Origin: Chiloscyllium plagiosum
Taxonomy: Eukaryota
Assembly (NCBI RefSeq): GCF_004010195.1
Contig: NC_057718.1
Span: forward strand, 98,270,876 to 98,303,298
Direction: 5' to 3'
Length of the DNA: 32,423 nt
Position numbers and translations under genes: made by a program
Shown here: positions 2,410-32,423 of the stretch, one piece after another
How the letters are laid out: each line of letters begins with the position of its first letter
Position numbering within the stretch: position 1 is the first letter of the stretch
The notes under the pieces: generated by a model
Seen by the model: the letters and a program-made list of their open reading frames with translations, nothing else
Database searches by the model: none
What the model was told of the DNA's origin: nothing

Positions 2410-3185
2410 ATGAGAAAGTTAGAAACTGTAATTGAAATTAATCAGAAATTAAAGGCTGACATATCTCCAGGTCCTTATAATCCACGCACCAAATTACTAA
2501 AGCAAGTGCATTATTAGATGCATTGGTGGTCATTCTCCAACATTCCGTCAACTCTAGTGCAGTTCCTAGAGACTGGAGGGTGCCAAATATAACCACACTA
2601 TTTTAAAAAGAGAAAACACAGAAAAACAGCCTGACATCCGCCCTGGAGAAAATGCTGCTCAATTACAGAATATGTGATAAGAGAACACTTGAACGGTTAT
2701 TGAGATTAGAAGAAGTCAGCACACGTTTATGAGAAGAAAATCATGCTTTGCTAATCTACTGGAGTTTTTTTGGGGTGTCCCTGATGAAGGAAGCTAGTAC
2801 TTCCAAATAAACCTGTTGGACAACAACCTGGTGTTGTGTGATTTTTAATGAGGAGAATAGATCAGGGAAAATCGGTGGGTATGCATTTGGATTTCAAAAA
2901 CGTTTTCGACAAGGTCCCACATAAAAGGCTAGTGGGAAAAATTAAAGCAACCAAGATTGAGGGTAATGCACTGGCATGAATTGAGAATTAGTTGACAGTC
3001 CAGATCCAGAGAGTGGGAATAAACATGTCTTTTCCTGAACAGCGGGTGATGACTAGTGGTGTACCACATGGATCGGTGCTGGGACTCCAGCTGTTCACAA
3101 CATACGTAAATGATTGGACAGGGACATAAATGAAATGTTGCCCTGACAGCACAAAACTAGGAGGGGATTGTGAGTTGTAAAGGAG
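2410..3185 (+). mobile_element. CR1 LINE ORF2 reverse-transcriptase fragment, decayed
   Basis: Decayed DWRxANxTPLFKK, DFxKxFDKVPH and TSGVPxGSVLGxQLF-type motifs. Confidence 0.75.
2780..2848 (+). mobile_element. Truncated HHR family-B mini-element with stem II deleted, inserted in CR1
   Basis: ctgatgaagg-aagctagtacttccaaataaacctgttggacaacaacctggtgttgtgtgatttttaa aligns to 28363-28443 apart from a 13 nt deletion (agcggcgctccga). Confidence 0.85.
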
Positions 3186-3827: not shown

Positions 3828-3865
3828 AGTTCCTGATGAAGGGCTTTTGCCCGAAACGTTGATTT
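3828..3865 (+). ncRNA. Minimal type I hammerhead ribozyme motif (GUU triplet)
   Basis: CTGATGA (3833-3839)-A-GGGC TTTT GCCC-GAA-ACGT-T; weak stem I (agttc/gattt). Confidence 0.75.
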
Positions 3866-5661: not shown

Positions 5662-5822
5662 TGTCATAGAGATGTACAGCAGGGAAACAGACCCTTCAGT
5701 CCAACTCATCCATATCGACCAGATATCCCAACCTACTCTAGTCCCAGCGGGTTTTGAGAAGATTTGTAGCTCAGGTTGAGGTTTTGGATGTAGGTTTGCT
5801 CGCTGAGCTGGAAGATTCATTT

Positions 5823-5862
5823 TCAGACATTTTATCACCAAACTAGGTAACATCTTCAGTGT
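5823..5862 (-). ncRNA. Decayed hammerhead ribozyme in PLE pLTR (family C)
   Basis: Minus strand: aca CTGAAGA T GTTACC tagttt GGTGAT AAAA TGTC TG; inferred ancestral GGTGAC GAAA CGTC, eroded at CpG sites. Confidence 0.7.
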
Positions 5863-5959
5863 GCCTCCGGATGAAGCACTGGTGGTGTAACCTGCTTTCT
5901 GTTTATATGTTTGGGTTTCCTTGAGTTGGTAATGTCATTTCCTATGGTGACGTCATTTC

Positions 5960-8570
5960 CTATGGTGATGTAAATTCGCATTCTTTTTCTCAGGCGGTGG
6001 TAAATGGGATCCGAGTCAATGTGTTTGTTGATAGAGTTCCAGTTAGAATGCCATACTTCGTGGAAGTCTCGTGTGTGTCTCTGTTTGCCTTGTCCTAGGA
6101 TGGATGTGCTGTTCCAGTCGAAGTGGTGACCTTCCACATCCGTATGTAAGGATACTAGTGAGACAGGGTCATGTCTTTTTGTGGCTAGTTTATGTTCATG
6201 TATCCTGATGGCTAGTTTTATGCTTGTTTGTCCAATGTAGTGTTTATTACAGTCCTTGCAAGTTTTTTTTTAATGACATTAGTTTTGCTTGTTGTCTGTA
6301 TAGGATCTATCAAGTTCATTAGCAGCTGTTTTAGTGTGTTGGTGGGTTTGTGGGCTACCATGATGCCAAGAGGTCTGAGTAACCTAGGAGTCATTTCCAA
6401 GATATCTTTGATGTAGGGGAAGGTGGCTAGGGTTTCTGGACGTGTTTTGTCTGCTTGTTTGGGTTGTTGCTGAGAAATCGGGGACTGTGTTCACTGGGTA
6501 CCCATTCTTTTTGAATACACTGTATAGGTGATTTTCCTCTGCTCTGCATAGTTCCTCTGTGTTGCAGTGTGTGGTGGCTAGTTGAAATAATGTTCTAATG
6601 CAGCTTTGTTTGTGGATGTTGGGATGTTTGCTTCTGTAGTTCAATATTTGATCTGTATGTGTTGTTTTCCTGTAAATGCTGGATTGAAGTTCCCCATTGG
6701 CTGTTCGCTCTACTGTGACATCTAGGGATGGCAATTTGTTGTTGTTTTCCTTCTCTTTCGTGAATTTTATGCCAGTAAGAGTATTATTGATTGTCTTGAA
6801 GGTTTCCTCGAATTTGTGATGACAAAGATGTCATCCACGTAGCGGACCCAAAGTCTGGGTTGGATGGTTGGCAGAGCTGTTTGTTTGAGTCTCTGCATTA
6901 CTGCCTCTGCTAAGAACCCTGATATCGGAGATTCCATGGGTGTTCATTGGTTTGTCTGTAGATTTTGTTGTTGAAGGTGAAGTGGGTAGTAAAGTGGGCG
7001 GCACGGTGGCACAGTGGTTAGCACTGCTGCCTCATAGCGCCAGAGACCCGGGTTCAATTCCCGCCTCAGGCGACTGACTGTGTGGAGTTTGCACATTCTC
7101 CCCGTGTCTGCGTGGGTTTCCTCCGGGTGCTCCGGTTTCCTCCCACAGTCCAAAGATGTGCAGGGCCAGGTGAATTGGCCATACTAAATTGCCCATAGTG
7201 TTAGGTAAGGGGTAAATGTAGGGGTATGGGTGGGTTTCGCTTCGGCGGGTCGGTGTGGACTTGTTGGGCTGAAGGACCTGTTTCCACACTGTAATGTAAT
7301 CTAATTAAAAAAAAAGCATATGTCCACTAACTTGCTGATGAAGTTAATGGTGTTTGGTGTATGTGTCTTTGGGTCTTCTAATAGTGTAGTCAGTGTTTCC
7401 TTAGCCAGGTTGACATTGATGGATGTGAACAGGACTGTTACGTTATTTTATCCTCTTCTATCTTGGTGCCTTTGTTTGTCTTCAGGAATTCTTGGGTGGA
7501 GTGAATGGAGTGGTGTGAGTCCTCTACTAAGTGTTTTAGTCTTTGGTGTAGCTCCTTGGCCAGTCTGTAAGTTGGTGTTCCAGGTAGCGAGACTATGGGT
7601 CTGAGGGGGGCTCCTGGTGAATTTTGGGTAATCTGTAGAAGCGTGGTGTGTTGGATCCATCTGGTTTCATTTTTTGGAAGTTGATCTTATTTATTTCTCC
7701 AGATTTCTGAAGTTGTTTTGAATGGGGCTATGATTTGGTTCTGTAGTTATGGGGTCAGGTCTATCACCACTTGTTGGTAAGTGTTGGTATCTGCAAGTCG
7801 TGCGTTCACTTTCTCAATGTAGTCTCTTTGATTTAAAATGACTATCAAACTTCCTTTGTCTGCAGGTAGGATAACAATGTTTTTATCTTATTTTAGTCTT
7901 TCTAGTGTTTTACTTTCTTGTGTATTCAGTGTGTACCGTTCCTTTTCCCTGCTTAATGTTGGTGCAACTGCCTGTCTGATGATTTGCTGGGTTGCTTTTG
8001 TGAATCGGTTGTCTTTCAGTGTTGTTTCTAATGCTGCTAAAGAATCTTTCTTGTATGCATCCTGGAAGTTGTCATTTAATCCTCTTACTAAGACTGCTTT
8101 TTCAGTGTCAGATCAGGGTCAGTCAGATAAGTTTTTATCCATGCTTCTGTGTTGTCAGTATTGTTATTTTGTGTAAGTTTGTCTAGTTTTTTTTCTGTAG
8201 GCCTAGTTTTTTTTTTTCATTTTCTGTGTTTGTCACTGTATAATATGTATGGCTTGTTGTACTGTGTCTGTCAATTCATGGTCTGTTGCATGAGTGAGTA
8301 AAGAATTTGGTGCAAAATTTCTCAGTTGTATTTACGAAGTCTGTTGTGGGCATCTTTAATCATTTCTCTTAGCATTCTATGGCCATTTTGCTCTGCTATT
8401 CTTTTGGCTAATAGAGTCTTATGGGAGGTTTGTATTTAAGACGTTTAGGTTAAACCTGTTTCCTTAGGCATTCATGCAGGAAGTACGGTTGTTCGCAAGT
8501 GGTGCTCTGTCAGATGGCATTGGTTTCCCATTTTTGGGCCAGTTTTAGCGTTTTGCACCCATAGATGTTA
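5960..8570 (-). pseudogene. Disrupted PLE ORF (N-terminal domain, RT, GIY-YIG endonuclease)
   Basis: N-terminal ...YFLHECLRKQV.PKRLKYKPP, ILPADKG, YVDD, LDVTVER, YRKTTHTDQILNYRS.HP and H.FDW..TSILGQ; multiple frameshifts and a SINE insertion. Confidence 0.88.
6996..7315 (+). mobile_element. HE1 SINE (V-SINE), full-length and young, inserted in the PLE RT
   Basis: A-box TGGCACAGTGG (7007-7017), B-box GGTTCAATTCC (7051-7061), core gtggagtttgcacattctccccgtgtctgcgtggg, CR1-like tail and A-run; many CpGs retained. Confidence 0.93.
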
Positions 8571-8947
8571 GCAGGATTTGAGAAGATTTGTAGCTCAAGT
8601 TGAGGTTCTGGATGTTGGTTTACTCGCTGAGCTGGAGGGTTCATTTTCAGATGTTTTGTCACCATACTAATTAATATCTTCAGAGAGTCTCCAGATAAAG
8701 CACTGGTTGTGTAGCCCGCTTTCTCTTTATATGTTTGGGTTTTCTTGGGTTGGTGATGTCATTTCCAGTGGTGATGCCATTTCCTGTGGTGATGTCATTT
8801 CCTGTTCTTCTTCCCAGGGGGTGGTAAATGGGATCCAAGTCAAAGTGTTTGTTGATAGAGTTCCGGTTGGAATGCTAATCTTCTAGGAATTCTCGAGTGT
8901 GTCTCTGTTTGCCCTGTGCTCAGATGGATGTGTTGTCCCAGTCAAAG
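8569..8947 (-). repeat. Upstream pseudo-LTR (direct repeat of 5747-6123)
   Basis: tttgagaagatttgtagctca...gatggatgtg.tgt.ccagtc.aag is repeated in the same orientation, the partial-tandem structure typical of PLEs. Confidence 0.9.
8647..8686 (-). ncRNA. Decayed hammerhead ribozyme in second pLTR
   Basis: Minus strand: CTGAAGA T ATTAAT tagtat GGTGAC AAAA CATC TGA. Confidence 0.6.
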
Positions 8948-10874
8948 CAACACTGAAAGACAACCAACTCACTAAAGCAACCCAGCAAATCACCAGACAG
9001 GCAGTCGCACCAAAATTAAACAGGAAAAAGGAAGGATACACACTCAATACACAAGAAAGTAAAACACGAGAAAGACTAAAATAAGATAAAAACGTTGTTA
9101 TCCTACCTGCAGACAAAGGAAGCTTGACAGCCATTTTAAATCAAAGTGACTACATTGAGAAAGTGAACGCACTACTTGCAGATACCAACACTTACCAACA
9201 AGTGGCGATAGACCCGAACCCACAACTAGCGAACTGAATCACAGCCCTACTCAAAACAACTTCAGAAATCTGGAGAAATAAATAAGACCGAATTCCAAAA
9301 AATGAAACCAGATGGATCCAACACACCACGCTTCTACAGATTACCCAAAATTCGCAAACCAGGAATCCCCCTCCGACCCATAGTCTCACTTACAGACTGG
9401 CCAAGGAGCTACACCAAAGACTAAAACACTTAGTAGAAGACTCACACCACTCCATCCACTCCACCCAAGAATTCCTGAAGACCATCGAAGACACCAAGAT
9501 AGAAGAGGATGAAATAATGGCCTCCGTGGACATAACAGCCCTGTTCATCCATCAGCATCAACCTGGCCAAGGAAACACTGACTACACTATTAAAAGTACC
9601 AAAGACACATACACCAAACACTACTAACTTCATCAGCAAGGACATATTATAAAGCTAGTGGACCTATGTTTTACTACCCACTTCGCCTTCAACTACAAAA
9701 CCTACAGAAAACCAACGAACACTCTGATGTCAGGGTTCTTAACAGAGGCAGTAATGCAGAGACTCGAACAAACAGGTCTGCCAACCATCCAACTCAAACT
9801 TTGGGTCTGCTACGTGGATGACACCTTTATCACTAAACGAAACAAATTCGAGGAAACCTTCAAGACCATCAATAATACCCTTTCTGGCATAAAATTCATG
9901 AAAGACTGAATACAACAACAAACTGCCATTTCTAGATGTCACAGTAGAACGAACAGCCAATGAGGGATCTCCAAACCAATGTCTACAGGAAAACAACACA
10001 TACGGATCAAATACTGAACTACAGAAGCAATCATCCCAACATCCACAAACAAAGCTGCATTAGAACATTATTTCAGCTAGCCACCACACACTACAGCACA
10101 GAGGAACTATGCAGAGCAGAGGAAAATCACCTATACAGTGTATTCAAAAAGAATGGGTACCCAGTGAACACAGTCCCCGATTTCTCAGCAACAAATCCAA
10201 ACAAGCAGACAAAACACGTCCAGACACCCTAGCCACCCTCCCCTACATCAAAGACATCTCGGAAATGACTGCCAGATGACTCAAACCCCTTGGCATCATA
10301 GTAGCCCATAAACCACCAATACACTAAAACAGCTGCTAATGAACTTGAAAGGTCCTATACAGACAACAAGCAAAACTAATGCAATTAAAAAAATACCTTG
10401 CAAGGACTGTAACAAACACTACACTGGACAAACGGGCAGAAATCTAGCCACCAGGATACATGAACATCAACCAGCCACAAAAAGACATGACCCAGTCTCA
10501 CTAGTATTCTTTCTTACAGATGTGGAAGGACATCACTTCGACTGGGACAACACATTCATGCTAGGACAAGGCAAACAGAGACATGCATGAGAATTCCTAG
10601 ATGCATAGCATTCTAACCGGAACTCTATCAACAGACACATTGACTTGGGTCCCATTTACCACCCCCTGAGAAAAAGAATAGGAAATGGCATCGCCATAGG
10701 AAGTGATGTCACCACAGGAAATGACATCACCAACCTAAGGAAACATAAACATATAAATAGAAAGCGGGCTACACCACCAGTGCTTCATTCAGAGGCTTAC
10801 TGAAGATGTTGCCTGGTGTGGTGACTAAATGTTTGAAAATGAACCTTCCAGCTCAACGAGCAAATATAAATCCA
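8945..10874 (+). pseudogene. Inverted 5'-truncated PLE copy (RT, GIY-YIG and pLTR)
   Basis: LWVCYVDDTF, YRKTTHTDQILNYRSNHP and IPCKDCNKHYTGQTGRNLATRIHEH; reverse complement of ~5785-8025. Confidence 0.92.
10797..10836 (+). ncRNA. Decayed hammerhead ribozyme in inverted pLTR
   Basis: CTGAAGA (10800-10806) T GTTGCC tggtgt GGTGAC TAAA TGTT TGA. Confidence 0.65.
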
Positions 10875-11296
10875 TAATCTAGTCCCATTTGCCACCACTT
10901 GCCCCATATCCCTCCAAACCCTTCCTAGGTGCCTTTCAAATGTTGCAATTGTACCAGCCTCCACCACTTCCTCTGGCAGCTCATTCCATATACGCACCAC
11001 CCTCTGTGTGAAAAAGCTGTCCCTTAGGTCACTTTTATATCTTTCTCTTCTCACCCTAAACCTATGCCCTCTAGGTCTGGATTCCCCCACCACAGGGAAA
11101 AGACTTATCCTGTCCATGCCCCTCCTGATTTTATAAACCTCTATGAGGTCACCCCTCAGCCTCTGATGCTCCATGGAAAACAGCCCCAGCCTATTCAGCC
11201 TCTCCCTATAGCTCAGGTCCTCCAACCCTGGTAACATCTTTGTAAGTCTTTTCTGAACCCTTTCAAGTTTTACAACAACCTTCCGATAGGAAGGAC

Positions 11297-14830: not shown

Positions 14831-15058
14831 AGTCTAGATTAGAGTGGTTCTGGAAAAGCACAGCAAATCAGGCACCATCCGAAGAGCAGGAAAGTTGACG
14901 TTTCGGGCAAAAGCCCTTCATCAGGAAGAGCTTTTGTTCATTCCTAATGAAGGGCTTTTGCCTGAAACATCGATTTTCCTGCTCCTCGGATGCTGTCTGA
15001 TCTGCTGTGCTTTTACAGAACCACTCTAATTTAGACTCTGATTTCCAGCCTCACTTTT
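14831..15058 (+). mobile_element. Palindromic HHR family-A element (two divergent HHR motifs) inserted in an ancient SINE
   Basis: Arms ~14831-14927 and ~14941-15037. Minus core is intact (CTGATGA A GGGC TTTT GCCC GAAACGTC, 14924-14897); plus core is mutated (CTAATGA). Imperfect TSD ctgg(cc/tt)tgtttgt at 14817 and 15061. Confidence 0.88.
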
Positions 15059-19167: not shown

Positions 19168-20195
19168 GCACACACACACACTCTCTCTCACACACAAGCA
19201 CACACACTCTCTCTCTCGCTCACACACACTCTCACTCTCACACCCACACCCTCACTCACACACACTCTCACATCTACACCCTCACTCACACACACACTCT
19301 CTCTCTCACACACACACACTCACATACTCTCACACACACACGCACACACANNNNNNNNNNNNNNNNNNNNNNNNNNNNNNNNNNNNNNNNNNNNNNNNNN
19401 NNNNNNNNNNNNNNNNNNNNNNNNNNNNNNNNNNNNNNNNNNNNNNNNNNNNNNNNNNNNNNNNNNNNNNNNNNNNNNNNNNNNNNNNNNNNNNNNNNNN
19501 NNNNNNNNNNNNNNNNNNNNNNNNNNNNNNNNNNNNNNNNNNNNNNNNNNNNNNNNNNNNNNNNNNNNNNNNNNNNNNNNNNNNNNNNNNNNNNNNNNNN
19601 NNNNNNNNNNNNNNNNNNNNNNNNNNNNNNNNNNNNNNNNNNNNNNNNNNNNNNNNNNNNNNNNNNNNNNNNNNNNNNNNNNNNNNNNNNNNNNNNNNNN
19701 NNNNNNNNNNNNNNNNNNNNNNNNNNNNNNNNNNNNNNNNNNNNNNNNNNNNNNNNNNNNNNNNNNNNNNNNNNNNNNNNNNNNNNNNNNNNNNNNNNNN
19801 NNNNNNNNNNNNNNNNNNNNNNNNNNNNNNNNNNNNNNNNNNNNNNNNNNNNNNNNNNNNNNNNNNNNNNNNNNNNNNNNNNNNNNNNNNNNNNNNNNNN
19901 NNNNNNNNNNNNNNNNNNNNNNNNNNNNNNNNNNNNNNNNNNNNNNNNNNNNNNNNNNNNNNNNNNNNNNNNNNNNNNNNNNNNNNNNNNNNNNNNNNNN
20001 NNNNNNNNNNNNNNNNNNNNNNNNNNACACACACATACCCTCTCTCACTCACACACCTACACACACATACCCTCTCTCACTCACACACACTCTCACTCAC
20101 ACACACACACATACCCTCTCTCACTCACACACCTACACACACATACCCTCTCTCACTCACACACACTCTCAGTCACACACAGACACACACACACA
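19168..20195. repeat. (CA)n/(CT)n compound microsatellite, with ~32 bp higher-order units after the gap
   Basis: Direct reading; the unit acacatacccTctctcactcacacacctac recurs in 20027-20165. Confidence 0.95.
19351..20026. other. Assembly gap (676 N)
   Basis: Run of N. Confidence 1.
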
Positions 20196-25459: not shown

Positions 25460-26214
25460 GAACCACAGAGCAGAAGGAGGCTATTCAGTCCATTGTCCCT
25501 GTGCTGGTTTCATTACCTGGTGTAAATCTTCTGCCTTTTCCCCATGGCCCTGCTCACCATTTCTATACAAATAATCATATGATGCCCTTCTAGAATGCCT
25601 CAGTTGAACCTTCCTGTACCACTTCCAGACCCTATTTGCTCTGTGAAAAAGTTTTTTTTTTACGATGACCTTGTATTGTTTGCACATCACTTTAAATCTA
25701 TGCCCGCTCATTCTTTCTCCTTATGTGAGCAGGAACAGCTCCTCCTTATCTACTCTAACCAGTCGACTCTCCATTGTGAAAAGCTCCATCAGGTCTCTCC
25801 AGGGAAGACAGTTCCAATTTAGAACATAGAAGATAGAAAAGTACAGCACAGAACAGACCCTTCGGCCTACAATGTTGTGCCAAAGATTAATCCTAATCTA
25901 AAATAAAATAACCTAACCTACGCACCCCTCAATTCACTGCTGTCCATGTGCATGTCCAGCAGTCGCTTCAATGTCCCTAATGACTACTTCCACGATCACT
26001 GTTGGCTACGCATTCCATGCACTCACAGCTCTCTGTGTACTACCTCTGAGTCTCCTGTATACCTTCCTCCTAACATGTTAAAGCTATGAACACTCAATCC
26101 TGTCTTGGGAAATGTCTCTGGCTATTGACTCTATCTATGCCTGTCATTATCTTGGACACCTCGATCAGGTCACCTCTTTTTCTCCTTCTCTCCAAGGGAA
26201 AAGTCCAAGCTTAT
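25460..26214 (-). mobile_element. Two nested CR1 3' fragments (older 25460-25820; younger 25821-26214, resuming at 27799)
   Basis: agaacatagaagatagaaaagtacagcacagaacagaccc 3' end; aagtccaagctt continues as agtcaatctctc after 27798. Confidence 0.7.
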
Positions 26215-27798
26215 GTCTTGACATGCATAAAAGTAGATACATCCCCAGGACCTGATAAGGTGTGCCCTCAAATGCTGTGGGAAGCTAGGGAAGTGGTTTC
26301 TGGGCCTCTTGCTGAGATATTTTTATCATCGATAGTCACAGGTGAGGTGCCAGAAGTCTAGAGGTTGGCTAACATGGTGCCACTGTATAAGAAAGGTGGT
26401 AAGGACAAGCCAGGGAACTATAGACCAGTGAGCCTGACATTGGTGGTGAGCAAGTTGTTGAAGGGAATCCTGATGAACAAGATGTACATGTATTTGGAAA
26501 GGCAAGGACAGATTAGGGATAGTCAACATGGCTTTGTGCATGGGAAATCATGTCTCACAAACTTGATTGAGTTTTTTGAAGAAGTACCAATGAGGAGTGA
26601 TGAGGGCAGAGCAGTAGATGTGATCTATATGGACTTCAGTAAGGCATTCGACAAGGTTCCCCATGGGACGCTGTTTATTAGGATTAGATCTCATGGACAA
26701 CCAGAAGAACTAGCCATTTGGATACAGAACTAGCTCAAAGATAGAAGACAGAGGTTGGTGGTGGAGGGTTGTTTTTCAGACTGGAGGTCTGTGATCAGTG
26801 GTTTACTACAAGGATCGGTGCTGGGTCCACTACTTTTCGTCATTTATATAAATGATTTGGATGCGAGCATAAGAGGTACAGTTAGTGAGTTTGCAGATGA
26901 CACCAAAATTGGAGGAGTAGTGGACAGCGAAGAAGATTACCTCAGATTACAATGGGATCTTGATCAGATGGGCCAATGTGCTAAGGAATGGCAGATGGCG
27001 TTTGATTTAGATAAATGCAAGGTGTTGCATTTTGGGAAGGCAAATCAGAGCAGGACTTATATACTTAATGGTCAGGTCCTAGGGAGTGTTGCTGAACAAA
27101 GAGACCTTGGAGTGCAGGTTCATAGCTCCTTGAAAGTGGAGCAGGTAGATAGGATAGTGAAGAAGGCATTTGGTATGCTTTCCTTTATTGGTCATAGAGT
27201 ATTAAGTACAGGAGTTGGGATGTAATGTTATGGCTGTACAGGACATTGGTTAGGCCACTTTTGGAATTTTACGTGCAATTTTGGTCTCCTTCCCATCAGA
27301 AAGATGTTGTGAAACTTGAAAGGTTTCAGAAAAGATTTACAAGAATGTTGCTGAGGTTGGAGGATTTGAGCTACAGTGAAAGGTTGAATAGGCTGGGGAT
27401 GTTTTTCCTGGAGCATTCTAGGCTGAGGGGTGACCTTATAGAGGTTTATAAAATCATGATGGGTATAGATAGGATAAATAGATAATGTCTTTCCCTGGAG
27501 TGAGAAAGTCCAGAACTAGAGGGCATCGATTTAGGGTGAGAGGGGAAAGATATAAAAAATGACCTAAGGTGCAACATTTTCAAACCAAGGGTGTTGCTGC
27601 CAGAGGAAGTGGTGAAGGCCGGTACAATTGCAAGTTTTAAAAGGCATTTGGATGGGTATATGAATAGGAAGGATTTGAAGGGATATGGGCCGGGTGCTGG
27701 CAGGTGAGGCTGGATTGGGTTGGGATATCTGATCGGCATGGACGGGTTGGATCAAAGGTCTGTTACCGTGCTGTACATCTCTATGAATCTATGACTCT
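26215..27798 (+). mobile_element. CR1/HER1 LINE, 5'-truncated, RT to 3' microsatellite tail
   Basis: PGNYRPVSLT, QHGFVHGKSCLTNL, YMDFSKAFDKVPH and FADDTKIGG; tail (ctctatga)n. Confidence 0.95.
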
Positions 27799-28263
27799 AG
27801 TCAATCTCTCTTTGTAAGACAAGCCCGCCAGTCCAGGCAGCATCCCTCAATCTATCCTCATAACTGAAGTTTCTGAGGATAGATATTCCTGAAATCATTT
27901 TTGTATATTACTTCTGCTTTGTCTCCAATACATTCAAATCTTTCCTATAATTTGACACCCACAACTGTTTGCATTACACGGCTGAGGTCTAAAAAGTGTC
28001 ATGTACAAGTTCAACCTCCCTGTACTGCATGCAGTGAAGGCTGGATTGGGATACTTTTACAACTGTGTTCTTTGATGGTCCTCATATCAGCAATTACTAA
28101 TTGTCAAAGTGTCCATATTTGAACACTTTTTTACAGCATTTTTAAATAGAAATGGGAGATTGGCTGCCTAGAAATGTGGAATTTAAACTTATCTGTGGTT
28201 CACTGCTGTGCAAGTTTGTATTTTTATATCAACAAACCTATTACCAAGGCCAATTATTTCTTT

Positions 28264-28480
28264 AGTTAAAAAGCACACACCAGGTTACAGTCCAACAGGT
28301 TTATTTGGAAGCACTAGCTTTCAGAGCGCTGCTCCTTCATCGGGTGTTTGAGCCACAACCACCTGATGAAGGAGCGGCGCTCCGAAAGCTAGTGCTTCCA
28401 AATAAACCTGTTGGACTATAACCTGGTGTTGTGGGATTTTTAACTTTGTACACCCCAGTCCAACTCCGGCATCTCCAAAT
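28264..28480 (+). mobile_element. Palindromic HHR family-B element: ~88 bp arms, 5 nt loop, 35 nt unpaired 3' tail
   Basis: 28264-28350 is the reverse complement of 28356-28445. Putative TSD caatta(tt/aa)tcttt at 28251-28263 and 28481-28493. Confidence 0.92.
28360..28394 (+). ncRNA. Intact minimal type I hammerhead ribozyme, predicted cleavage CUA^ between 28391 and 28392
   Basis: CAC-CTGATGA-A-GGAGC GGC GCTCC-GAA-AGCT-A-GTG: stem I CAC/GTG, 5 bp stem II and palindromic helix III AGCT. Confidence 0.85.
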
Positions 28481-28849
28481 CAATTAAATCTTTGTCATTT
28501 CACATCCAGAGCACTTTTGCACTAAAATTAATTCATGCAAATTAATGTTAAAATTATTTATTTAAAATCTTGTTTTGGTTGTGGTTCTTTTGAGGTAATC
28601 ATTAACTGATTTTTCTATCGGAATTGTATTAATCTAAACAAATTAAAATTAATGTATGTAACAAGATAAGAATTCATAGTTTAAATGGTTCAGTATTAAT
28701 TTTCTCAAGTGTTCAATAAATTTGGGGTGTAATAATTCGTTCATGGCCAGCTTGCAAGCTTAATGGGAGCAATGCACAAAGAATGGATTGTACAATTGCC
28801 CTCAGACCTGATCAGGCTTATTTTATATGGATTCACATTTGTTCTTTGC

Positions 28850-29180: not shown

Positions 29181-29397
29181 AAAGAGACCATTTTGGAATT
29201 TGAGTAATGTACTGCCTACGTGACTTACAATGTATCAGTGTCTGATGAATTCTCGTCTACCTCAGCACCTTTTTCTGGGATAGGCTACTCCAATGTTGGC
29301 TCAGTAAGCAATCATTGACCTGAGGTTCCTGAGATTGTTGCTTAACATGATTACCACACGGTCAAGCACTGCTGCTGATGGCTAATCTTTGTTCCAG

Positions 29398-29513
29398 GAA
29401 CACAGTGTCACTCAGAAATCACATTGCTTGCAAGTGGATAAAATGGTGGCACAACACGACAAGGAAAAGTTAACCCAAGAGAAGATTTTGGAAAAAGCAA
29501 TCAAAAAGAAGGG
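29398..29513 (+). CDS. PLCB4: Next internal coding exon of PLCB4, 116 bp, phase 0/2
   Basis: Branch-like gCTAAT (29381-29386), ctttgttccAG| acceptor and |GTAAGT donor. Translates [39 protein letters not shown] versus recalled human [39 protein letters not shown]. Confidence 0.93.
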
Positions 29514-29779
29514 GTAAGTGCCTCCTGATTTTTCAGTACCTGCAATGCATTGTCCGGTAGATCCCAAAAGGAAGCACTTTAATATTGGGAGGGGATTATG
29601 AAGCGATGAACTCTAAGAACAGGAAGGCAAATATTCCCTGAGTTTAAGTTGTTTCTGAGGTGTACATTTATTTTATCTTTTGGATGGCAGAACATCTAAT
29701 AAGGAGGAAAATTAGTGCATGCAGAGCCTAGACCAGCATTCGTAACCAATCTTCAGTCTATTCAGCCCAGTTTTATTGT

Positions 29780-30005: not shown

Positions 30006-31341
30006 GAATCCATATTTTATTCCCTGATTTTAAATTAAACAAAGCTAGTGTCTGGGGAGTGAAGCCAGTGGTCTGTAGAGTGGTGGTGAGGAGACAAAAT
30101 CTCAGCTTCAGTTGTGGGCACTTAAATAGCAGGAAAGAGGCGCTGCATTAGCAAGGAGAAAGAGTCTGTAAGAAGGGGGAGGAGGATCTGAAAGGGTGAA
30201 GAGTGAGGTCATGCATGTGCTGAAGGGAGTGCCATGTGAACTAGTAGTGATATGTGATCAGACTTCTCTTATTCATGACAATATTGCCGCAGCGTTCAGC
30301 ACTCGAAAGACACTTGTGATGTTCATTTCAAAACAGTTACTTCCTGCAGCATTCCCTTGACCATTTCAATGTGATCTCTAATCGGACATGACACACCTCT
30401 GGGTGGGAACTTTAACCTTCCAATCCAGATATCGAGACACGACCAATATGTCACAAGACCTCTATGCTTGTTAGGTGTTGCAATTTGTTTTAAGTTTGCT
30501 AGTTCTGTCGATTGTTAATCGACAATGATTACATGGTCACCATTAGATTAGCTGAATGTAACCATTTTCAATTGTCATAAAAACTGATCTGGCTCATGAA
30601 TGTCCTGTAGAGAAGGAAGTCTGTGCAAGGTGAGTACATTATGTGTTTTTCCCTTTGAAAAATACCCAAGGACAGGTGTTAAAACAAAAGGAATCTGAGC
30701 AAAGGAACTTAAGGCAGTCAACAAGACCAAAAGCAAAATTAACTGCTCAATTACGGACATTAATGCTACCGGTGATTTCCATTGCTCAACATTCAACTAT
30801 CAGCTCTTTGTGAACAATCCAGACATTAATCTGCCTGTGTTTTTTTAAAAATTTCTTCATTTTCGACTCTTATTTCTAATCTGTCTGGATGTGTGCAGTG
30901 TTAATAATTCTCGCATTTAGTAATGAACAAACTCACACTGTGTTAACTCAAGAAAGCCTGTTTAAATCAACGCTTTTTAAGACGTGGATTACATTTGGGT
31001 CTGGGAGGAAGAGCTTCATAAGGCAGGGGGTTCCATTTTTAAAATAACCTTGTTCCGACCTACTGCGGGAGTAGGTGAATACAGAAGGGATCCAGTTCAT
31101 CCCTGTTTGGAGTTTCCCACCTGGAACCATAACACATAGGGGGGTTTCGCCTGGGGGCCTGGTCATAACACTTTGCAACCTGCCCAGACTTACAGATTTG
31201 CTTTCACTCCTGCATTAATGCTGCATATGGAGGAGGGGGTTTGGAGGTTTCAGTTGATGAGTAGGATGGGGATTATTGTGGGAGTAAAGGGGTTGAGCGT
31301 GGGAGAGTAATTATTGAAAAGTCAAGGTTTCACCAAAAGAA

Positions 31342-32423
31342 AATGAACCGGGACAAGTGGTGGGCTTGTTAGTGGGTGAACATTTTGGTGATGGTGACCA
31401 CAATTCTGTGACTTTCACCTTGTTATGGAGAAGAGATAGGTGCGCACAACAAGGTAGATTTTATAATTGGGGGAAGGGAAATTACGATGCTGTAAGGCAG
31501 GATTTGAGGAGCATACATTGGGAGCATAGGCTGTCAGGGAAGGATGTGGAGGAAATGTGGAACTTTTTCAAAGAGCAGATACGACGTGTCCATGATATGC
31601 ATGTACCTATCAGGCAGGAAAGAAATGGTCGTGTGAGGGAGCCTTGGTTGACGAGAGAGGTTGAATGTCTGGTAAAGAGGAAGAAGGAGGCTTACATAAG
31701 GTTGAGGAAACAGGATTCAGACAGAGCAGGGGAGGGATACAGGATAGCCAGAAGGGACCTGAAGAAAGGGATTAGGAGAGCGAAGAGAGGGCATGAAAAA
31801 TCGTTGGCAGATAGGATCAAGGATAACCCCAAGGCATTTTATGCGTATGTGAGAAACCTGAGAATGACGAGAACGAGGGTAGGTCCGAACAAGGACAGTA
31901 GTGGGAGACTGTGTATTGAGTCGGAAGAGATAGGAGAGGTCTTGAACAAGTACTTCTCTTCAGTATTTACGAACGAGAGGGACCGTATTGTAGAAGAGGA
32001 GAGTGTGAAATGGACTGGTAAGCTAGAAGAGATACCTGTTAGGAAGGAAGATGTGTTGGACATTTTGAACAACTTGAGGATAGACAAGTCCCCCGGGCCT
32101 GACGGGATATATCCTAGGATTATGTGGGAAGCAAGAGAGGAAATTGCAGTACCGTTGGCAATGATCTTCTCGTCTTCACTGGCAACGGGGATGGTACCAG
32201 GGGACTGGAGAGTAGCGAATGTTGTGCCCCTGTTCAAAAAAGGGAATAGGGATAACCCCGGGAATTACAGGCCTGTTAGTCTTACTTCTGTGGTAGGCAA
32301 AGTAATGGAAAGGGTACTGAGGGATAGGATTTATGAGTATCTGGAAAGACACTGCTTGATTAGGGACAGCCAGCACGGATTTGTGAAGGGTAGGTCTTAC
32401 CTTACAAGTCTTATTGAATTCTT
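31342..32423 (+). mobile_element. Young CR1 LINE, 5'-truncated, ORF2 open to the window end (endonuclease C-terminus, tether, RT start)
   Basis: Stop-free frame from 31342: NEPGQVVGLLVGEHFGDGDHNSV...PWLT...NPKAFYAYV...DKSPGPDGIYPR...DWRVANVVPLFKKG..PGNYRPVSLTS...QHGFVKG. Confidence 0.95.

Follow-up and report, generated by a model that had tools for sequence, protein, structure and literature searches.

Endonuclease-bearing (EN+) Penelope-like elements (PLEs) are marked by a CX2-5CxxC linker between reverse transcriptase (RT) and endonuclease (accessible text of PMC8557442), and an inverted 5'-truncated copy together with a one-sided tail of 30–40 bp is typical of such elements in the accessible portions of PMC8557442 and PMC3846280. 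Metazoan PLEs also carry minimal hammerhead ribozymes (min-HHRs; PMC4209133). In vitro, cleavage of a single minimal Schistosoma hammerhead was undetectable and dimers had no more than low activity (PMC4209133), and the hammerhead of PAc, the Poseidon element of Anolis carolinensis, cleaves only with the element's protein (PMC11167929). When purified, the anole element cleaves both strands of the target and extends them, uses uncleaved RNA as its template, and has two internal RT starts that bound the tail (PMC11167929).

Here we analyze a window of 32,423 nt from the shark Chiloscyllium plagiosum (contig NC_057718.1), which holds a hairpin within an intron of PLCB4. We find that 28264-28481 is very probably a head-to-head double pLTR stub of a Neptune-type Penelope-like retrotransposon, likely the outcome of one insertion event and likely inert. 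The features of the stub and the exon that follows it, in window coordinates, are:

28251..28263, plus strand: target-site duplication, left copy (11 of 13 letters equal to 28481-28493; similar duplications at many of 30 aligned copies)
28264..28350, minus strand: short inverted arm, a pLTR lacking the tail, whose end is the first reverse-transcription start (blastn and 30-copy alignment)
28312..28346, minus strand: mirror hammerhead with the core change U4 to C (CCGAUGA), from motif reading
28352..28481, plus strand: long arm (pLTR and tail), sense to PLCB4 (copy alignment, arm-end counts and blastn)
28360..28394, plus strand: minimal type I hammerhead with a 3-bp stem I, a 5-bp stem II and a palindromic AGCU (motif reading and folding)
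28401..28406, plus strand: poly(A) signal AATAAA, ATTAAA in many copies (poly(A) ends in family RNA)
28446..28481, plus strand: tail of 36-37 nt, on one arm only (bimodal 3' ends, pair asymmetry and tail-ATG junctions)
28481..28493, plus strand: target-site duplication, right copy (13 nt, 11 identical to the left copy)
29398..29513, plus strand: next PLCB4 exon, approximately residues 968-1007, C-terminal region (exon-frame protein match, tblastn and contig)

The whole insert is a hairpin of 218 nt (28264-28481) between the two copies of the target-site duplication. An initial annotation had placed the feature at 28264..28493; the start stands, but the element ends at 28481, and 28481-28493 is target-site duplication. 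By blastn, the short arm is 88.9% identical to the right arm over family positions -6 to +83. The minimum free energy of the hairpin is -141.5 kcal/mol (z = -19.9), with 0 of 200 shuffles as stable. The same annotation had read a duplex of ~88 bp, and the long hairpin is indeed real, although it comprises 83 predicted pairs with a longest unbroken helix of 34 bp.

The hammerhead in the long arm has a stem I formed by CAC (28360-62) and GUG (28392-94), a core made of CUGAUGA (28363-69), an extra A at 28370 and GAAA (28384-87), a stem II of GGAGC and GCUCC (28371-75/28379-83), and a palindromic helix III, AGCU, at 28387-90. The cleavage triplet is CUA with A28391 as H17, and the predicted cut falls between 28391 and 28392. 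The complete core, CUA triplet, AGCU helix and CAC/GUG stem that had been reported for 28360-28394 are all in place, and the reported minus-strand mirror with a mutated core (CCGATGA) is likewise present at 28346-28312, with its U4 to C change at 28342. A strict hammerhead descriptor matches 18 times in 432 kb, compared with 0, 0 and 0 matches in three Markov controls. Rfam returns no hammerhead model at gathering score for the element, and at E values up to 10 it gives 12 matches, all below gathering, of which 11 are generic miRNA hairpins and one is ArcZ, with no hammerhead among them.

The motif shows the traits of a min-HHR, i.e. the core CUGANGA, GAAA, UH and stems I and II, along with a palindromic helix III that would permit dimers and an extra base after position 9 (A28370). 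Its likeness to the metazoan PLE motifs of PMC4209133 extends to the extra nucleotide between 9 and 10.1, the G10.1-C11.1 pair, the palindromic helix III, the short helix I and the occurrence mostly as dispersed single motifs. By contrast, helices II and I measure 5 and 3 bp in the shark and 7-8 and 4-5 bp in Schistosoma, opposite-strand motif pairs lie 100-700 bp apart in Schistosoma and only ~20 nt apart here, and, unlike the motifs of that study, the shark arm has a poly(A) signal 10 nt after the cut that is used in family RNA (PMC4209133). Free co-folding of two strands does not yield the active dimer, the strands being predicted to pair via stem II instead. By analogy with the anole element, activity in trans with a protein may be possible for this hammerhead too.

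The class assignment comes from longer relatives of the stub. Copy L242, one of five long copies examined, begins with an inverted tailed pLTR and a direct pLTR, which are followed by a broken ORF, a 3' region rich in CA and one more pLTR; its inverted, direct and 3' pLTRs match the window arm at 92-95%. The ORF, which is broken by stops and shifts, encodes an RVT_1 domain (E 7e-7), then a Cx4Cx2C linker and then a GIY-YIG region whose motif is visible at a score below the cut-off (E 0.016; 16 bits against 22.6). The linker can be read in L242, L243, L244 and L175, and a Pfam search with three fragments of L175 returned no relevant family. The family hence combines RT and GIY-YIG, the linker, hammerhead-bearing pLTRs, a 36-37-nt tail at one end and a 13-nt duplication, all of them marks of EN+ PLEs. 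Judged by these sequence features, the parent is an endonuclease-bearing PLE of Neptune/Nematis type, a type that is read from the linker motif and not from a tree. A non-LTR retrozyme was rejected as there is no tandem array here and the copies lie head-to-head.

The host gene was identified from the 40-aa exon frame, which found a match in 22 of 23 candidate proteins (best 95%), almost all carrying the name PLC beta-4. A Pfam search with the exon translation alone found no family. Shark PLCB4 gives 36 exon-sized tblastn matches, ordered and all on the plus strand, and places exons in the window at 438-503 and 29395-29514 (plus strand), so the element is intronic and sense to PLCB4. The intron that holds it measures 28.9 kb. 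The downstream exon is flanked by splice signals in the sequence (AG at 29396-97, GT at 29514-15), and a 258-nt contig of one sequencing run matches the window at 29396-29513 only. The element ends 916 nt before this exon, in agreement with the position ~1 kb upstream given by the initial annotation. The description "sense to PLCB4" is also supported by the intron and strand placement, but it conveys little information because the palindrome presents one core per strand.

The same intron contains other repeats. Core-intact minimal hammerheads of other PLE families lie at 3833 (plus strand), 14924 (minus), 16485 (plus) and 21828 (minus); the one at 3833 is sense to PLCB4 and lacks a mirror in the 3 kb upstream of it. 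A hairpin of another PLE family spans 14831-15037, and a 58-nt solo fragment of the hairpin's own family, sense to PLCB4, its core damaged and its AATAAA intact, is found at 2791-2848 (plus strand). Positions 5746-10880 form a big nested inverted structure, with arms of up to 493 nt that are 82-95% complementary and with RT-like and GIY-YIG remnants on both strands (PF01541 E 0.009 at 10312-10587); this is an inverted insertion, now decayed, from a different Penelope-like family. LINE-type reverse-transcriptase remnants, which we take to be CR1-like from their look, occur on the plus strand at 26074-27482 (RVT_1 E 4e-11) and 31318-32421 (RVT_1 E 1e-5). An assembly gap (N run) at ~19350-20027 is flanked by two CA-rich microsatellites.

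Copies of the family are very numerous in the shark genome. The exact hammerhead core is present 13,810 times (6,972 on the plus and 6,838 on the minus strand; control 0), and the 32-mer downstream of the cut has 32,202 genomic matches. Compared with the majority sequence of its 29 closest copies, the window copy carries 9 differences over 213 positions. These exact cores and this divergence, together with the family-wide neutral decay described below, led us to reject a host-domesticated ribozyme of the CPEB3 type. In the accessible text of PMC10919898, the CPEB3 ribozyme resembles the shark motif as an intronic self-cleaving motif that precedes an exon; it differs in being HDV-like, conserved and active as a monomer, while the shark motif belongs to a set of over 13,000 copies that decay neutrally.

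A DNA search of the shark's own genome yielded 3,735 first-look candidates, 40 of which were scored. All 30 of the best loci, a query-biased set, have the layout of a short inverted arm, a variable junction and a long arm, and the central junction varies from locus to locus among the 30 aligned copies. A less biased sample was drawn from the first 100 positional matches of the 32-mer, 99 of which were taken as 80 loci: 39 are tight hairpins, 32 solos, 6 wide pairs and 3 gapped. Similarly, 1.03 Mb around PLCB4 contains 90 arms in 57 insertions (27 tight, 6 wide and 24 solo). By rough extrapolation, hairpins would number in the order of 10^5 genome-wide.

Arm ends are also structured. With C3 of the hammerhead core as +1, arm 3' ends are bimodal (40/99 at +80 to +87 and 48/99 at +113 to +120), and in every one of the 33 paired insertions in the 1.03 Mb a long arm is combined with a short one. 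Where copies are longer, the tail leads directly into the ORF start codon, with 71 exact tail-ATG junctions. Arm 5' ends fall between -12 and +5 of the core in 53 of 99 cases, mapped against one reference copy, such that some of the nine ends at -2 are subfamily mismatches. This cluster suggests a defined RNA 5' end or an RT stop at the hammerhead; the cause may be the start of the RNA, stalling of the RT, or a splice acceptor like that of Drosophila Penelope. Separately, copies L175, L217, L220, L222, L228 and L239 have their first ORF codons joined to later parts of the element (the endonuclease region or the pLTR again), and these joins are internal jumps during copying.

For the origin of the stub, we propose that the element's protein would nick both target strands 13 nt apart, that each nicked strand would prime cDNA synthesis on uncleaved RNA from one of two internal starts 36-37 nt apart, and that both cDNAs would stop just past the hammerhead before being joined. 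Self-priming on an antisense template is an alternative for such junctions in the accessible part of PMC3846280. A self-copying palindromic element, either MITE-like or retrozyme-like, that spread from a hairpin master would fit the recurrence of the two-arm layout at very many loci; we give it almost no chance, as the junction that varies between loci largely refutes it, arms are also found solo or far apart, both arms are pieces of the pLTR of an autonomous element, and the locus has no tandem array.

The stub is close to two described systems. As portrayed in the accessible text of PMC8557442 and PMC3846280, inverted-pLTR insertions of EN+ PLEs likewise show an inverted 5'-truncated copy beside a direct copy, a 30-40-bp tail at one end, a short duplication and a hammerhead in the pLTR, and the inverted pLTR of Pen2a_Av is 37 bp shorter than its direct pLTR. 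They differ from the shark insertion, in which each copy is truncated to ~90-130 nt and the two together form a 218-nt hairpin, the duplication measures 13 nt against 8-10 nt in Adineta, and an ATG stands at the end of the tail. The anole element is alike in its two internal RT starts that define the tail, in the cutting and extension of both strands, in the use of uncleaved RNA as template, and in the lack of RNA-seq ends at the cut (PMC11167929). However, PAc is a member of the Penelope/Poseidon clade with an ORF that begins at stem II of the hammerhead (PMC11167929), whereas the shark family has a Neptune-type linker and an ORF start ~90 nt after the cut.

Traces of cleavage were sought in both DNA and RNA. 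An apparent peak of arms starting at the cut was rejected, since the 349 matches of the +30 pattern are mostly spurious: ~85 of the first 100 are point variants of a subfamily that is two bases longer, and only ~3 of 30 inspected +30 loci are true junctions or deletions. After correction there is no excess of arms beginning at the cut, with ~170-250 at +30 compared with ~190, 490 and 300 at +27, +33 and +36. In one single-cell poly(A) run, 2% of which was read, sense family RNA crosses the core at a depth of 698-890 with no peak of starts or ends; these reads represent one sample and other copies of the family, in a poly(A)-selected library that is blind to cleaved 5' pieces.

The same RNA reveals a poly(A) site in the arm. 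In family RNAs a poly(A) stretch begins 12-15 nt beyond AATAAA/ATTAAA (81 and 109 loose poly(A) ends in one analysis, 257 and 324 in another, from one sample and other copies), and family RNA depth halves past the site, from 848 to 404. Two patterns with a genomic A-run at this position have 0 matches, as opposed to 32,202 for the normal continuation, so the poly(A) is not templated. Within openly accessible main texts, including the accessible portions of PMC3846280 and PMC2377424, we found no published description of a poly(A) signal in PLE pLTRs; the accessible part of PMC3365414 has nothing on ribozymes.

Both the ribozyme and the poly(A) signal are predicted to be locked in the hairpin, and the antisense arm is transcribed first, whichever strand is read. 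With the left arm, hammerhead stems I and II have pairing probabilities of ~0 and the active fold is predicted to cost 57 kcal/mol. When the left arm is removed, this penalty drops to 3.6 kcal/mol; stem II is then predicted to form (probability 0.9), in contrast to the 3-bp stem I (0.02). The poly(A) signal has a predicted unpaired probability of <0.01 in the hairpin and >0.95 without the left arm. In PLCB4 pre-mRNA, the first-made arm is thus predicted to zip up the hammerhead and the poly(A) signal. We see this cage as a probable by-product. Even when unpaired, the ribozyme as a monomer would cleave very little, so normal splicing would remove the intron, perhaps after A-to-I editing.

The initial annotation had gone further in proposing that the hammerhead is active and is silenced by the upstream arm, and that such insertions therefore persist in introns. 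The two folding costs and the early synthesis of the antisense arm on both strands support a silencing duplex, and elsewhere an intronic ribozyme can lower host mRNA (CPEB3; accessible text of PMC10919898) and tandem retrozymes are under-represented in Xenopus introns (accessible text of bioRxiv 10.64898/2026.07.22.740005). The step from silencing to tolerance is not supported. We scored as uncaged any core-intact motif, of any PLE family, without a core-covering mirror within 1 kb, over ~440 kb that span the PLCB4 coding region and part of an upstream PLC-beta paralogue, both on the plus strand. Uncaged cores are kept in sense orientation in these genes (16 sense vs 7 antisense, one of the sense motifs being that at 3833 in the same intron; 12 vs 3 for cores with a stem I of at least 2 bp), which argues against a need for caging. 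A real sense excess was itself rejected, given that it depends on the threshold and on small numbers (12 vs 3, p 0.035; 7 vs 0, p 0.016; 16 vs 7, p 0.09); outside the two genes there is none (18 sense vs 17 antisense). Tight hairpins are no commoner in genes, with 8/20 genic and 18/33 between-gene insertions, the between-gene zone probably including PLCB4 5' introns. Intact cores are no more frequent in hairpin arms (17/31) than in solo arms (20/28; p 0.28; sampled loci without gene annotation), and cores decay neutrally, as substitutions affect 35/769 core positions vs 150/2,742 others (p 0.36; anchor positions and columns >25% variable left out). The sole count in favor of the cage comes from genic sense arms of the hairpin's family, which keep the core in 0/7 solos and in 6/11 paired arms (Fisher p 0.04). 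In at least 3 of those 7 solos the truncation falls within the core or beyond it, and an intact core is rare in solos of either strand, outside genes too, so this count is given little weight. Together with the absence of cleavage for a single minimal motif (PMC4209133) and the uncut family RNAs, these data make it very unlikely that caging explains tolerance. The folding models support the cage thermodynamically, but it does not appear to be what lets insertions stay in introns.

The poly(A) version of the cage is the better-founded idea of the two. Here, the hairpin would matter as a mask of the poly(A) signal that shields PLCB4 from intronic polyadenylation, and that editing could undo. The signal is used in family RNA with a tail that is not templated, and it is predicted to be paired in the hairpin and free without the arm; yet genic solos, three of which lie in PLCB4, number 7 sense (6 carrying the signal) vs 2 antisense, which gives no sign of selection for masking, and the hairpins' lack of enrichment in genes also speaks against it. 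We consider such a protective role highly improbable.

The initial annotation had also named the hairpin as a candidate ADAR or Dicer substrate, and by analogy the ADAR idea is plausible. Palindromic repeats of 200 nt are hyper-edited in frog, and elephant shark brain has many editing sites, according to the accessible text of PMC5625713. The Xenopus palindromic Harbinger repeats of that text are similar to the shark hairpin as self-folding repeats of ~200 nt that need no partner copy; they differ in being a DNA transposon without a ribozyme, for which editing has been shown. Contigs of one run show six differences in the flanks of the element, none of them A>G. In the single-cell poly(A) run, reads that map to the arms stem from other copies, and none falls on the unique flanks or on the exon.

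Turning from the alternatives back to the double pLTR stub, its value for this locus is little, as one of very many neutral stubs, and modest at the level of the family. The family bears on the role of PLE hammerheads, as it shows no footprint of a cleaved template and its polyadenylated RNAs keep the site intact. Because the pLTR poly(A) site lies upstream of both RT starts, insertion templates must read through it or begin near the ribozyme. Head-to-head Penelope stubs could even be self-neutralizing, in that the first-made antisense arm would mask both the poly(A) site and the ribozyme, leaving ~100,000 latent terminators that editing may release, with release here cutting PLCB4 before its distal C-terminal domain; we rate this wider proposal as a long shot. 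If masking of the poly(A) site were selected, it would explain the abundance of a terminator-bearing element in long introns.
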